Assembly: GCA_958296045.1 (NCBI GenBank)
Contig: CATQHT010000001.1
Span: 965,395-1,029,394, forward strand
Length of the DNA: 64,000 bases
Origin: Rhodothermales bacterium
GTDB lineage: Bacteria > Bacteroidota > Rhodothermia > Rhodothermales > Bin80
Direction of reading: 5' to 3'
Part shown: positions 45,873 to 50,851 of the stretch, in pieces
Layout: each line of letters starts with the position of its first letter
Position numbering within the stretch: the first letter of the stretch is position 1
The notes under the pieces: model-generated
Database searches by the model: none
The model's input: the letters and a program-made list of their open reading frames with translations, nothing else
What the model was told of the DNA's origin: nothing
Translations under genes and position numbers: made by a program

Positions 45873-47239
45873 ATGTCTAAGCTGCCTGCTCTTTCTGCTT
45901 CCAGCCGATGGTAGTTCTCACTGGCCGCAGCCATGATTCTCGGCGCTGCCGCCTGCGCCAGCATCCACATCAGCACAGATCCGCTTCCTCCCGGTGCGTC
46001 GAAGGTGGCCCAGGTTGAGGCTTAGTACGAAGAGGCTCTTGTCCAGACCCAGGAGCGGGCTCTTGGCAAGTTTAGTAATGCCGAGGTCCTAGAGGCCATG
46101 GTGGCGAAGTACCCACCCGACTGGTCGCAGGCCGTCACGTTGGGTTTGGGCGATGGCATTACGCGTGTTACCACGGTACTTGGCCCAGGTCAGCCTGCCA
46201 CCACCCATTCTCACAGCGAGCTCGGAGCTGTGCGGACGATTTCGGTGGACATCAATCCGCAGGATGAGGTGGTCGGTTCTCGGCTGCTGGAGTTCGTCAG
46301 TCCTGATTCCCTGGATCCCGATCGTTTCACGGACTACGTGCGTCAATGGTAGGATCGGGACTTTGGCGATCTACGAATGCTGATCAGCGAGTACAATATC
46401 GCCTATGAGGCCAAAATCTGTGAACGTTACACGCCCGGGGAGGGGTTTGAGCCGGTCGAACTGACTCTGAATGAAGTTTCGGGGGCAGGCAAGACGCACG
46501 GTACGATTTACTGCTGGGTGACCGACGTTGTTGAAGGTTGGATATGCGTAGACCCTCCGTACACGGGGGATGATCCGGGCGATGGCGAAGGGGAGTGCAC
46601 CTTAGCTTCGGTGGATATCTATATCACCTGTGTTGAATTCGATGACCCGGGCGGGGGCGATGGTGGGGGTGATGGTGGAGGGAGCGGCGGCGGGGGGGCG
46701 ACGACGGCGAAGATGAGGAGGAAGACTGTTCTTGCAGCGAAGCAGTCCCCTGCGCGATGGAGGCGGAATATGACTCGTTGAGCGTTGAGTTCACCATCGC
46801 CTGCGACTGGTTCACCCGGAATGGGGGATCGGATAATTTTTCTTGGCCGGAGCTGAACGGGTACTGGGCGGGTGGCAACGAAGGAACGCACAACCCGTGG
46901 GGGTATATCACCTCAGGTATTCCGGGGATGCTGGAGACTCTACGTGCCACCGCTCTGGCCGATACCTTCCTGAATATCAACTTGCTGCCGCTTTCTAGCG
47001 GCTATCGATGTCCCGTGGGGAATACTAATGTGGGAAGCAGTGCACCGACCAGAAGTCGGCATATGGCGGGCCGGGCCATCGATATATCTACCCGGCAGCT
47101 TTGGGAGAGTTTGTCCGAGTCTGAGTGGCGGGCGCGATACAACGCCCTTCGTGACCTTGCGTCCCTAGTCGGCTTCGATTATGAGGGCCTTACCTTTGAC
47201 ACGTATGGTGACCACCACCTCCACATTTCCATCGAGTAA
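45873..47239 (+). pseudogene. lipoprotein with C-terminal peptidase-M15-like domain, carrying three in-frame TAG codons and one frameshift
   Basis: One frame reads MSKLPALSASSRW*FSLAAAMILGAAACAS...VEA*YEE...(46098 ORF)...RQW*DRD...(46377 ORF)...GGGSGGGG. A shift inside G7 (46692-46698) then joins the 46757 ORF, whose SGYRCPVGN...SRHMAGRAIDI...GDHHLHISIE resembles Zn D,D-carboxypeptidase/peptidase M15 motifs. Confidence 0.6.
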
Positions 47240-47438
47240 TCCTGGGACGCCATGAGCGGCTTCCTTTTCTGCTTAATGCTGGGTATGGTATGGCCGCTTT
47301 CGGAGGTGGCTGCCCAACGGCCTCGAGTGCCATCTAGCGAGGAGGACATCGTAGCCGCCCTTCGGAGCACGGACATCAAGACCATAGACTTGGGGATAAG
47401 CGGCGCCATGCGTATTGGGCCTAAGGGCTGGCGAAAAT

Positions 47439-48731
47439 TTAACCTATCTGCCTAGTTGGCCGGTGGTCAATTTCGCCTGCACTCGTGGGTGCGCAACACC
47501 CCTGCGGATGCCGCTCACGAGCACGATTCTGTACACTCCCCAGACCTGCCACAGCATCCAACAGCGGATGCCGCTCAGCGTCCGGGTGAGCAGACACATG
47601 TTGCGCGTACGATAGGCTCGCCGCCCATCCATTAGGGCAAAGGCCCCGATACAACACGTTCAACGCCGCGTTAACGTCGCGGCACTGGGTCTTTCCGCAC
47701 GTGGCACAACGATGCTTCCTGTCAGCCAGGCGTAGCCTTTCCTCTGGCTTGTGATGGCAAGCGCTGCATCTCTGCGTTGTGTCGTTCGGCGGAACCAGCT
47801 CCACCTTGCCGCCAAGCAAAGCGGATTTGTACTTCAACAGCTGTACCAATTCGTACAGCCCTTGCGCGCGCATCGATCGGTTCAGCCCCGTCTTGCGGCT
47901 GCCACCGGCGCGTGTCATGCGTCCTACTTTCAGGTCTTCCAGAAACAGATTCGCGGATCGCTTGACGACGTCGGCCGCCACCTCGTGGCGGTACCCGCGG
48001 TTGCGTCTTACTACTCGCTCGGCCTCCTTGCGCCAAGCACCAAACCGCTTTCGGCGCAGACGCGTGCCTTTCTTCGTCTTAGCAGCCCGACGCTGCAAAG
48101 CGTCCCTGCGGGGCTCACTCTTTTTGATGGGCGCGTAGCTCTTTCCATCCGCCAGCGTCGCGATGGCCTTGCAGCCAAGGTCCACGGCCATCGGTGTGTC
48201 TGCGCAGCTGTTCTCTGGCGCCTCGGGGCGCTCGTACACGACTTGAATCGTGTATTCGGTACCCAGCGACGACCGCACGATGCGTACGAACTTGCAGCCG
48301 TAGCGCTTGATCAGCCCGCGCCTATCGGTGAAACGGACGTACCCGACGCCCTTGATGCGAACGCGATAGTCTTGGCGCCTGACGCGTTCGGGCTTTCGTG
48401 GCAGCCTGAAGCTCTTCACCAAGTCGCCGCTGAAACGCGGCGGGCGCGCATGGTGCTTATTGAAAAAGTGCTTGTAACCCTCCGCCACGCCCCTGATCAC
48501 AGAACGCTGCTCAGTCACGCCGAACTCGAGATTGCGCTCATCGGCGTTGCGGGCGGCCGTCCAGAGCTTCGTCAATGTGAAATAGCTCGGATGCTTCTCT
48601 GCTGCCTTGTGTGCGTTGCGGCATTGTTGGACCGCCCAGTTGCGGACCCACTTACCGTTAACGAACATCCGCCGCAGGCGGGCATAGCCCGCCTTCTTTG
48701 TATAGCAGCGGTATGTCTGGCTCAGTAGCAA
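47439..48731 (-). CDS. tnpB: TnpB/OrfB-family RuvC-like RNA-guided nuclease homolog
   Basis: RuvC-I MAVDLG, RuvC-II FLEDLK, Zn-finger CSACHHKP...HRCATCG and RuvC-III RDVNAALN in canonical order. The C-terminal ~70 aa run into the element terminus and are probably RNA-coding sequence read through. Confidence 0.85.
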   Translation of the reverse strand: MLLSQTYRCYTKKAGYARLRRMFVNGKWVRNWAVQQCRNAHKAAEKHPSYFTLTKLWTAARNADERNLEFGVTEQRSVIRGVAEGYKHFFNKHHARPPRFSGDLVKSFRLPRKPERVRRQDYRVRIKGVGYVRFTDRRGLIKRYGCKFVRIVRSSLGTEYTIQVVYERPEAPENSCADTPMAVDLGCKAIATLADGKSYAPIKKSEPRRDALQRRAAKTKKGTRLRRKRFGAWRKEAERVVRRNRGYRHEVAADVVKRSANLFLEDLKVGRMTRAGGSRKTGLNRSMRAQGLYELVQLLKYKSALLGGKVELVPPNDTTQRCSACHHKPEERLRLADRKHRCATCGKTQCRDVNAALNVLYRGLCPNGWAASLSYAQHVSAHPDAERHPLLDAVAGLGSVQNRARERHPQGCCAPTSAGEIDHRPTRQIG

Positions 48732-48733
48732 GG

Positions 48734-48928
48734 CTACGGGCGCTCTCGTGGGTCGGCTTTCAGGCGTGCAGTCTGGGCAGCCCGAATCCGCTTCGAGTAC
48801 GCAATCAGGGCTTCATCGACAACGGCTCGGCGCACGACGTCCGTGTACGGCGCCCCTTCGCGCAGGGCAAGACCGAAAGCAGCGTAAAGGGAGCTACGTG
48901 AATCGCAAAGAAGGACTATTTCCGACAT
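48734..48928 (-). CDS. small ORF upstream of tnpB (possible ribbon-helix-helix-like protein)
   Basis: 64-aa ORF ending 2 nt before the tnpB TTG start, inside the element. The short beta-strand-then-helices pattern (IVLLCDSRS / LYAAFGLALREG / TDVVRRAVVDEALIAY) is only suggestive. Confidence 0.3.
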   Translation of the reverse strand: MSEIVLLCDSRSSLYAAFGLALREGAPYTDVVRRAVVDEALIAYSKRIRAAQTARLKADPRERP

Positions 48929-49984
48929 TCAGGCAGGCGAGAGCGGTTATCGACGTGCATAGCATCTACGCAGTTACGGAGCCGATGGTTCCGGTCAGGA
49001 TAAGTTAATATTTCGCCAGCCCTAAGCAGTGGACGCCCACGATACGCCGCGCGATACTCTACGCACTAGAGAGTGAGATGCGACGGGACGAAGAGGCCAT
49101 TCGCGCGGGGGTGCAGCGCTTCACCGACGACAACTTGCAGGGACCCCTTTCACGCTTGGCGGCTGTTATGCAGGATCCTGCAGCGATTCCCTTGCTGGCG
49201 TTAACAGCGGACGCCACGCAGCGTGCCGCTCTGATTGCTTTCGGACGACAGGCTCTGCCCGACTTGATGCGCGTGGCTCGCGAGGAAGACTGTTTTTGAT
49301 TCAATAAAGGCTCTGATCATGTTACGTCAGATGGTGCAGGCGCGCGGTTTGGAATATTTCACTCCGCAGGAGCGGGCTCAGCTGAAGGCTGTTGGTGGCC
49401 TGTATCTGTCACCCAGCTCACCTACGAATCCGAAAATGTATTACGCCGCCGGGCTTCTACTGGTACTAGAGGATGCGGAGGCCCGTAGTTGGGTTGTGGG
49501 CCGGGGAAATGAGAGAGTACAGGACCTGCTGGACGGCGCGCCCCCGTTGCCATTACTGGGCAAGCCCCTGTCCGAGATTCTGGCTGGGTATCGCGAAATG
49601 TACGGCCACCACTGGGACCAATAGCTCTAGCCCTGCCCAATACCCATAAGGGACATCTTAACTCTTGAAGTCGCGCTGCTTACTATGGTGCCTGTCAGAG
49701 AATAACGCGTTTCGGGCGTCTGAGTACCTGGAGTAAGGTCGGAGGCTTGCTGGGGGCCCGATGGGGACGCTGGTCTCAGCGATGGGAGGGGTGACAGGTG
49801 AGCTGTGCGGCCATTTCTGACCCTCAACTAGGCTTCGTTCGCTCCTGGCGGCGTAGAGAGGAGGATACCGGAAGGTTGCAAAAATGCTCGACAGAAAGCT
49901 GTTGGTGGCAGTCCGCAATCGGTGCGTGCATTTCATCGATCTGACCTGCATTATGCTACACCCAATGCGAGCACAGCGAGTGCT

Positions 49985-50851
49985 ATGGGCTATTTCGCGT
50001 GGATATTCTTGACTTGTACGTTTCTGTTGGCTCAACCTTCGCCAGCGCAGCAGACGCCTGACCAGGCGGCCATCGCCGAGAAGCTGCGGAGCTCGGAGAT
50101 AGACATTATCCAGGAGGGTATCAGCGCTGTCAATCGTATCCCCCATTGGGAATGGACACCGGAGCTACGTGACGCGATACTCTATGCACTAGAGGCGGAG
50201 CACCGACGGGATCGCGAAGCTATGCAGGCTAAGGAGTATCGATTTGCTGACGAAAACTTGGCCATATCTTTGACAGATTTTGCGATGGTTATGCAAGCTC
50301 CTGCGGCCATTCCAATGCTGGTAACTCGATGCAGGCGGGATCATGACGCCTGGGCCGCGCTAGTGGCCTTCGGGCGCCAAGCCTTAAGCGAGGTAATACG
50401 GGTTGCACGAGATGAAGATGGCACGGGTTTTGATTTGGACATCAAGGACTGCATTATCGCGTTGCGCCAGATGGTGCAGGTAAAAGGTGTGGCGTATTTC
50501 ACGGCCGAGGAGCTTCGTGAGATAAAGGCGGTTGCTGCCTTGTACCTTGCGCCAGACACAAGTCCGTTGCGTCACGATTGGAGTGCGACCACACGGGAAA
50601 TAACCACTAACCATGCAGCCGGGCTGCCACTGGTCCTTGAAGATGCAGAGGCTCGCTCATGGGTCGTACGCCTGGCATCAGATAGAGCAGCAAGTGAGGC
50701 CTGGATCGGGTTTGAAGACTCGTTCGGAGGTGGAGTCTCGGCGACCTGGTCTCGGCGTGAACTAAGGAAGCTGTTGGATGGAGAAGAATTGCTGCCGCGT
50801 CCGGTGCCATTCTCAGAGTTCCTCAAGCACTGGAATGAGCGTTACAGGTAA
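49985..50851 (+). CDS. secreted repeat (HEAT-like?) protein, intact paralog of the disrupted gene at 47252-49624
   Basis: Signal MGYFAWIFLTCTFLLAQPSPAQ. Collinear similarity to the pseudogene pieces (ILYALE.E, AAIP.L, ALVAFGRQAL, VARDED, LRQMVQ, LVLEDAEARSWVV). Function unknown. Confidence 0.65.
   Translation: MGYFAWIFLTCTFLLAQPSPAQQTPDQAAIAEKLRSSEIDIIQEGISAVNRIPHWEWTPELRDAILYALEAEHRRDREAMQAKEYRFADENLAISLTDFAMVMQAPAAIPMLVTRCRRDHDAWAALVAFGRQALSEVIRVARDEDGTGFDLDIKDCIIALRQMVQVKGVAYFTAEELREIKAVAALYLAPDTSPLRHDWSATTREITTNHAAGLPLVLEDAEARSWVVRLASDRAASEAWIGFEDSFGGGVSATWSRRELRKLLDGEELLPRPVPFSEFLKHWNERYR

Follow-up and report, generated by a model that had tools for sequence, protein, structure and literature searches.

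A 64,000-nucleotide stretch of the Rhodothermales bacterium assembly GCA_958296045.1 (contig CATQHT010000001.1, positions 965,395 to 1,029,394; hereafter the window) carries a 1.6-kb element whose only gene encodes the RNA-guided nuclease TnpB. We consider it likely that this element is a non-autonomous transposon with terminal inverted repeats (TIRs) that a CTWAG-targeting DDE transposase mobilises in trans, and an enzyme of the IS5/PHIS type is, tentatively, the leading candidate for the mobiliser. This reading is carried by inverted repeats that run to the tips of the element, by a pentameric target motif whose central base varies between copies and agrees on both flanks of the window copy, and by the placement of its TnpB among proteins found in DDE-type transposons.

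The element extends from 47426 to 49021 (alternatively from 47425 to 49022), and right and left are used here relative to tnpB, the right end being the one at the lower coordinates. The termini, GGCTGGCGAAAATTTAAC (47426-47443) and GTTAATATTTCGCCAGCC (49004-49021), are inverted repeats with 16 of 18 positions complementary, and a repeat search carried the arms to 28 nt at 86% complementarity (47421-47448 and 48999-49026). When the whole 64 kb were scanned with a degenerate form of the 18-mer allowing up to three mismatches, two sites were found, both of them the element termini (0.19 sites expected by chance; at least two sites in 0 of 100 shuffles). CTAAG adjoins each end (47421-47425 and 49022-49026), and the terminal motif recurs a third time inside the element, at 47471-47483, where it can pair over 13 nt (85%) with the terminus at 47424-47436. 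All three features, namely the 16/18 complementary termini, CTAAG directly at both ends and a third motif able to pair with the left-coordinate terminus, had been described in an initial annotation made from the sequence alone, and all three held. We write these ends as GGCTGGCGAAAWWTTAAC, or as GG(G)CTGGCGAAA and GG(G)CTGGCGAAAWWTTAAC with an optional outer G. Because CTAAG is a near-palindrome, the junction can be read in three registers (an 18-nt TIR with a 5-bp repeat, a 19-nt TIR with a 3-bp TAA, or a 20-nt TIR with 1 bp) that the window by itself does not separate; the 3-bp and 5-bp duplication registers fit it equally. Two other duplications were rejected: an IS630-type TA duplication, since TA stands on both sides in no register, and an 8-bp duplication, since the flanks GGCCTAAG and CTAAGCAG form no 8-bp direct repeat.

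The insertion interrupts a host gene for which an uninterrupted paralog at 49922-50851 serves as a proxy of the empty site. Deletion of 47426-49026 (1601 bp) produced an open reading frame (ORF) that aligns to this paralog without a gap over the junction (53% identity, 116 aa, E=2e-33), and deletions of 1596 or 1599 bp broke the host frame. The exact repair of the host reading frame by removal of 47426-49026, proposed in the initial annotation, is thereby confirmed, as is the absence of any transposase gene from the element: tnpB is its sole gene, and the element is non-autonomous.

The window TnpB falls into a 90%-identity cluster of 24 protein variants located on three contigs of one genome, many of them shortened to 211-378 aa. 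It follows that the element exists in multiple copies, some of them in decay. Junctions of further copies were recovered by an indirect route. Read-through protein variants, and a search using the peptide that is translated antisense over the right end, provided three additional right-end junctions: P0054 and P0055 from the same genome, and L181, a 945-bp contig carrying P0066, from another sample. P0054 reads past the stop codon and ends in ...QIGKFFASPKHGYNL, which back-translates to the TIR, then C-N-A-A-R, then unrelated sequence. The frameshifted P0055 ends in ...VNFSPALRHRY..., corresponding to the TIR and CTN-AGR followed by different sequence. Between L181 and the window, 10 of ~350 nt of element sequence are different, and the right TIR of L181 is identical at 17 of 18 positions; the similarity starts exactly at the pentamer, beyond which the flanks are unrelated, and the pentamer reads CTTAG where the window reads CTAAG.

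CTWAG is found at the right end of all four copies with a recovered junction, which are independent insertions at different loci, P0055 being counted as compatible. Read on the tnpB strand, the pentamer is centred on T in the window and on A in both L181 and P0054 (n = 3 determined), and the two flanks of the window copy agree in this base. Within the terminal 13 nt the pentamer centre is the sole base that varies across copies, the adjacent eight TIR bases being invariant. Such a centre, variable between copies yet matched across the two flanks of the window copy, suggests that the duplication stems from the target and measures 5 bp or 3 bp (C|TWA|G), and a pentamer copied from a palindromic target fits better than one inherited with the element. 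The 5-bp duplication suggested by the initial annotation is thus favoured as to its target-derived origin; the pentamer is not arbitrary but a fixed CTWAG, and a 3-bp duplication fits too. In the comparison of flanks among copies that the same annotation had proposed, all three further right junctions are CTWAG-compatible, left flanks being compared for the window copy only. The terminus itself, which the annotation had allowed might not be conserved, is kept in L181 (17/18) and also in the P0054 and P0055 read-through peptides.

Elements of the IS200/IS605 group have no TIRs, bear subterminal hairpins at both ends, make no target duplication, recognize a target only 5′ of the left end and depend on a Y1 HUH TnpA gene with matching ends, which may lie elsewhere in the genome. 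An element of this type (IS1341 group), transposing as single-stranded DNA with a Y1 TnpA supplied in trans, would use the left CTTAG as its target and target-adjacent motif (TAM) and the right CTTAG as its own cleavage pentamer, with no duplication at all. The window element shares with this group TnpB, the usual cargo of the family and here the only gene, as well as a right-end hairpin and a fixed short motif beside the ends; moreover, an element-borne pentamer predicts a constant right junction in all copies, and the 1601-bp removal suits the register of such an element equally. It differs in having true inverted repeats up to its tips and a motif on both sides with a polymorphic centre that matches across the window flanks. 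Its hairpin is present at the right end only: the left end forms no stable hairpin on either strand (folds z = +0.33 and +0.76 against shuffles), and therefore the IS200/IS605 anatomy is lacking. The close relatives of the TnpB reside in elements with variable 8-bp duplications, and the protein scored 114 bits against the narrow ('exception') IS200_TnpB model of NCBIfam, whose cutoff is 425, which is weak evidence. Altogether we regard an IS605-type origin as unlikely.

The window TnpB matches PF01385 and PF07282 in Pfam and exceeds the NCBIfam guided_TnpB cutoff of 100 with 178 bits. Aligned with its ten best relatives, it keeps the RuvC residues D184, E265 and D352 together with the CxxC...CxxC zinc finger, and its nuclease motif set is intact. 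IS607 elements have neither TIRs nor duplications, share a GG between ends and target and use a serine recombinase TnpA. The window element, in contrast, has TIRs and terminates in CC on the tnpB strand, and its TnpB reached 70 bits with the narrow IS607_TnpB model, below the cutoff of 350. A site-specific recombinase could still be imagined, Crypton- or IS607-like, for which the 18-nt arms would be binding sites around a 5-bp crossover core, CTWAG, with a circular form recombining with a CTWAG target and the core being left behind at both junctions. Joining the ends does give an arm-core-arm symmetry, the target is specific in 4/4 copies, and tyrosine-recombinase-associated TnpBs with inverted repeats have been reported (PMC10691335). 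Those associations, however, go together with inactivated TnpB (PMC10691335), whereas the D/E/D residues and zinc finger are intact here; a polymorphic core centre sits uneasily with strand exchange that depends on homology, no recombinase gene is present in the element or among the relatives, and the relatives are of DDE type. We give this possibility little weight.

Beyond its own cluster, the next-best proteins are 30-43% identical to the window TnpB. A profile-based scan with one genome per species gave 80 loci, many from sponge-type and marine metagenome-assembled genomes (MAGs), and the ends of 83 related loci were analysed. In the best-scoring relatives tnpB lies between long TIRs of the form GGGAATTATATAC...; both of these IS1595-type TIRs were found in 28 of the 83 loci, and 8-bp direct repeats flank them perfectly in 16 of the 28 and with at least seven of eight positions matching in 20. 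The repeats vary and are AT-rich (AAAGATTT, TAATCAAG, AAAAGAAA, ATAAAATA, AAATGTAA, ATTTCGAT and others), and such a footprint is left by DDE transposition with staggered cuts and not by IS605 or IS607 elements. L001 encodes an IS1595-family transposase (NF033547, 176.7 bits; Pfam Zn_ribbon_IS1595 and DDE_Tnp_IS1595) together with tnpB inside one outer TIR pair. This outer pair is flanked by TATTTAAT, and the inner pair, around the transposase alone, is without duplication; transposase and TnpB were therefore mobilised together, as a single 2.5-kb unit. A neighbour-joining tree grouped the window TnpB with L001, L002, L003, L005, L179 and L180 (bootstrap 200/200), nested in a larger IS1595-type set that is split from ordinary TnpBs at 200/200.

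The clade with IS1595/ISNwi1-like TIRs and variable 8-bp duplications comprises L001:1236-3761, L002-L027, L032, L037, L049, L062 and L065, and its hosts, in many phyla and for the most part uncultured, are Rhodothermales, Arenicellales, Binatia, Bryobacterales, Dadabacteria, Hyphomonadaceae, Acidimicrobiia and other MAGs. L013 has a TnpB-only element with TIRs of this type and, ~1.6 kb downstream of it, at L013:5220-6052, an apparently frameshifted IS1595-family transposase gene, 52-65% identical to that of L001; this gene is a candidate trans-acting mobiliser there. L018, from a Rhodothermales MAG, has an internally deleted TnpB of the same subclade without IS1595-type ends; ~220 bp downstream of this gene, at L018:3588-3615, GCGCGCGAAAGTTAACTCCTGA resembles the inner part of the window left TIR, GCGAAATATTAACTTATCCTGA, possibly by chance.

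The window element and the IS1595-type elements share a homologous TnpB of the same clade, a stop codon in or near the right TIR and a right TIR that pairs with an upstream segment, among the relatives in the folds of most of those examined. They differ in the TIR, GGGAATTATATAC against GGCTGGCGAAAWWTTAAC, and in the duplication, 8 bp, variable and AT-rich against a fixed CTWAG. One explanation for this mixture would be a diverged IS1595-family mobiliser that has acquired different repeats and an atypically short, site-specific duplication. The nesting of the window TnpB in the IS1595-type clade speaks for it, as does the agreement of GCGAAATATTAAC, the 13 innermost nt of the window TIR, with GGGAATTATATAC at 9/13 positions; when G47425 is included, the element end reads GGGCTG, which we take to be like the IS1016-group end consensus of ISfinder. 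A 9/13 match is weak in AT-rich sequence, however, no 8-bp direct repeat exists at the window element whereas the relatives consistently have 8 bp, and no IS1595 homologue was found in the window, which makes such a mobiliser improbable in our view.

Since the window TnpB is nested in the IS1595-type clade and yet has different ends, the ends were apparently swapped, and the simplest reading of the sequences would be that they were exchanged in the window lineage around a conserved core of TnpB and RNA; no remnants of IS1595-type TIRs were found inside the window element. It is possible, though we hold this with some reserve, that the TnpB/guide-RNA module evolved in IS1595 (Merlin-like) transposons and was transplanted onto a CTWAG-targeting chassis, the last stem of the scaffold being rebuilt around the new TIR by means of the third motif and the nuclease gaining a fixed motif capable of serving as TAM.

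The right end of the element combines coding and putative RNA features. The tnpB stop codon (47439-47441) lies inside the right TIR, and the last ~65 codons, which overlap the structured 3′ region, show no protein conservation; the conserved TnpB core ends near residue 365 (~47634), ~210 bp from the element end. The fold of the right-end 215 nt (-100.6 kcal/mol, z = -3.84, 0/200 shuffles equally stable) pairs the TIR with the internal third motif. A conserved CAGAAYCGT motif in this region is common to the relatives, after which the window element has ~60 nt more than they do. Rfam matched no family between 47000 and 49500. In most of the folds computed for nine relatives, the right TIR region likewise pairs with a conserved upstream segment, with weak covariation support, and RNAalifold on the right ends of 22 relatives gave a 6-pair consensus of weak energy, a hint only. 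The third motif of the window may, on these models, be the counterpart of a general right-end feature of the relatives, and because TIR pairing occurs in their folds too, the right-end hairpin is no evidence for IS605-type transposition. The structured region contains an exact 14-nt direct repeat, GCGGATGCCGCTCA, whose two copies lie 60 nt apart, at 47504-47517 and 47564-47577, and each contribute an arm to a strong predicted hairpin; an RNA stem-loop may have been duplicated locally in this lineage.

At the left end, the distance from the TIR to the tnpB start is ~290 bp, compared with ~70-110 bp in the relatives. The 64-aa ORF in this interval (48734-48928) has no Pfam match and no homologue among 5.8 billion clusters, other genomic copies included, and shows no similarity to the 66-aa ORF of L001. 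On account of the missing Pfam match and homologue we rejected it as a regulator or transposase remnant and judge it to be probably a chance ORF.

Elements of the IS1031 group, as catalogued in ISfinder, duplicate TNA. A C|TNA|G target at which 3-bp and 5-bp duplications are undecidable is described for the NuwaII group of the PHIS/IS5 superfamily (PMC4482050), PIF/Harbinger elements produce TTA/TAA duplications (PMC2213677), and the DDE families reported with TnpB in a 2026 review are ISL2, IS630 and IS1031 (PMC13565253), ISL2 and IS1031 being IS5-family groups. It is the published target, the PIF/Harbinger duplications and the reported company of ISL2 and IS1031 with TnpB that make an IS5/PHIS-type enzyme the leading candidate. 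The window element resembles IS5/PIF-Harbinger (PHIS) elements in its short TIRs, its palindromic CTNAG-type target with the same 3/5-bp ambiguity and the abundance of non-autonomous derivatives. It differs in that its target centre is only A or T (n = 3), its cargo is an RNA-guided nuclease and no IS5-type transposase was seen.

In the mechanism that we propose, a DDE transposase whose gene lies at another place in the genome would bind the two TIRs, which enclose only tnpB and the structured 3′ RNA region, and insert the element into palindromic CTWAG, duplicating either the central TWA (C|TWA|G, the IS5/PIF-Harbinger-type signature) or all five bases. TnpB would travel as cargo and would not itself be the transposase. 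Transcription of its guide RNA would run out of the right end into the neighbouring flank, and the TIR itself would supply the final stem of the scaffold; by analogy with IS605 TnpB and Fanzor (PMC10711439), the RNA would terminate at the right TIR or shortly beyond it and would draw its guide from flank sequence. CTWAG, standing immediately 5′ of the guide-matching flank in the empty site, could then serve as TAM, and TnpB could cut unoccupied or vacated sites, as for IS605-type elements. Which transposase acts, how long the duplication is, where the RNA begins and ends and which motif is the TAM are what we infer here.

Several observations weigh against a CTWAG-targeting DDE mobiliser. Both flanks are seen in the window copy only, so that a true duplication is not proven; the central base of P0055 is not readable, its peptide being only CTNAG-compatible; and a constant right-end pentamer is also expected of an IS605-like element that carries its own. 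The window TIR is unlike the IS1595-type TIR of the closest relatives. Nor did the search for a transposase sharing the 18-mer, which the initial annotation had recommended, yield one in the window, where no further 18-mer ends occur, or in metagenome and viral contigs. The TIR scan of metagenome contigs returned 97 loci, about the chance expectation, each with a single match, no plausible inverted partner and no TnpB, and viral contigs scanned with the protein and with CTWAG plus TIR gave nothing relevant, only single chance matches. A plasmid collection gave no match at the DNA level; its protein matches were at most 30% identical and of the ordinary IS605 type. Of the two alternatives left by the initial annotation, a DDE mobiliser acting in trans is nonetheless the better supported, by TIRs to the tips, the missing left hairpin, the polymorphic pentamer centre and DDE-type relatives, although the transposase itself was not found.

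Table 1. Features of the TnpB element and of the interrupted host gene (coordinates within the window; dot, no strand assigned).
Feature	Coordinates	Strand	Remarks or basis
CTAAG flank, target/duplication copy 1	47421..47425	.	tnpB 3′ (right-end) side; CTTAG at the same place in L181
Right-end TIR (relative to tnpB)	47426..47443	.	19 nt with G47425; holds the tnpB stop codon
Left-end TIR, upstream of tnpB	49004..49021	.	Repeat search and 18-mer scan
CTAAG flank, copy 2	49022..49026	.	Window sequence and deletion test
Internal third copy of terminal motif	47469..47483	.	Pairs with right TIR to form the last stem-loop; identical in L181
tnpB, 430 aa, TTG start	47439..48731	-	Pfam OrfB_IS605 and Cas12f1-like_TNB; NCBIfam guided_TnpB
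Structured 3′ region, putative omega-RNA scaffold	47426..47640	-	Overlaps the non-conserved C-terminal tail of the ORF; RNA identity inferred
Left-end non-coding region, ~270 bp	48732..49003	-	Longer than in relatives; holds 64-aa ORF 48734-48928
Host gene, 5′ part	47252..47425	+	ORF and deletion test
Host gene, 3′ continuation	49027..49299	+	Itself cut short; paralog homology resumes in ORF 49319-49624
Uninterrupted paralog, empty-site proxy	49922..50851	+	Deletion test

Additional observations concern the surroundings of the element and one of its copies. The host gene carries further damage: its reading frame ends at 49299, and the match to the C-terminal half of the paralog continues in a separate ORF at 49319-49624 (38% identity to paralog residues 181-308). 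Even apart from the insertion, the interrupted gene is a pseudogene. Just upstream of it, the ORF at 46757-47239 ends in …RHMAGRAIDIS…HHLHISIE and has no NCBIfam match; we presume from this C-terminal motif that it is like zinc D-Ala-D-Ala carboxypeptidase/peptidase M15-like proteins. In L181 (positions 826-945), similarity to the window ends abruptly at the equivalent of window position 47776, and this break could be a deletion derivative, a further insertion or an assembly chimera.

The element belongs to the known DDE-associated/solo type of TnpB transposon and is neither a new kind nor an aberrant IS605 element, since six DDE-associated TnpB branches (DDE-1 to DDE-6), all with inverted terminal repeats, and solo TnpBs that have the same ends as DDE-associated ones and are taken to be mobilised in trans have already been described (Altae-Tran et al. 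2023; PMC10691335). With these it shares TIRs around tnpB, the lack of a transposase in solo copies, the presence of multiple copies and a conserved core within ~250 bp of the transposon end; in contrast to them, the nearest relatives of its TnpB carry IS1595-type ends, and it is those ends, in L001, and not the window-type ends, that were found on a transposase-bearing element. The label 'atypical' given earlier is thus apt in so far as the anatomy is not IS200/IS605-like, and no longer apt in that TIR-bounded TnpB elements, including solo, trans-mobilised ones, were already on record (PMC10691335). Possibly new are the switch of chassis that we propose and the IS1595 association of the relatives. 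IS1595 is absent from the main text of PMC10691335 and from the review PMC13565253, and none of the nine publications naming both TnpB and IS1595 looked, from title or abstract, to be relevant. Fanzor-bearing eukaryotic DDE transposons (PMC10711439) likewise carry a TnpB-family nuclease as cargo of a transposon with TIRs as well as target-site duplications (TSDs), with a TIR that is predicted to belong to the guide-RNA scaffold; the window TnpB differs from Fanzor in being prokaryotic, of ordinary size and without sign of eukaryotic or viral origin.

For annotation, the lesson is that a TnpB-only gene does not by default belong under IS200/IS605. The RNA-guided nuclease emerges as a portable accessory that serves cut-and-paste DDE transposons besides the scarless IS605 and IS607 elements, and the fixed palindromic CTWAG target yields a testable prediction, namely that the TAM equals the target motif of the transposase. 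If the chassis transplant is true, it would be a natural case of a TnpB module portable between unrelated DDE transposons, and it would offer a tractable prokaryotic model for the origin of Fanzor-like guide RNAs embedded in TIR/TSD transposons.

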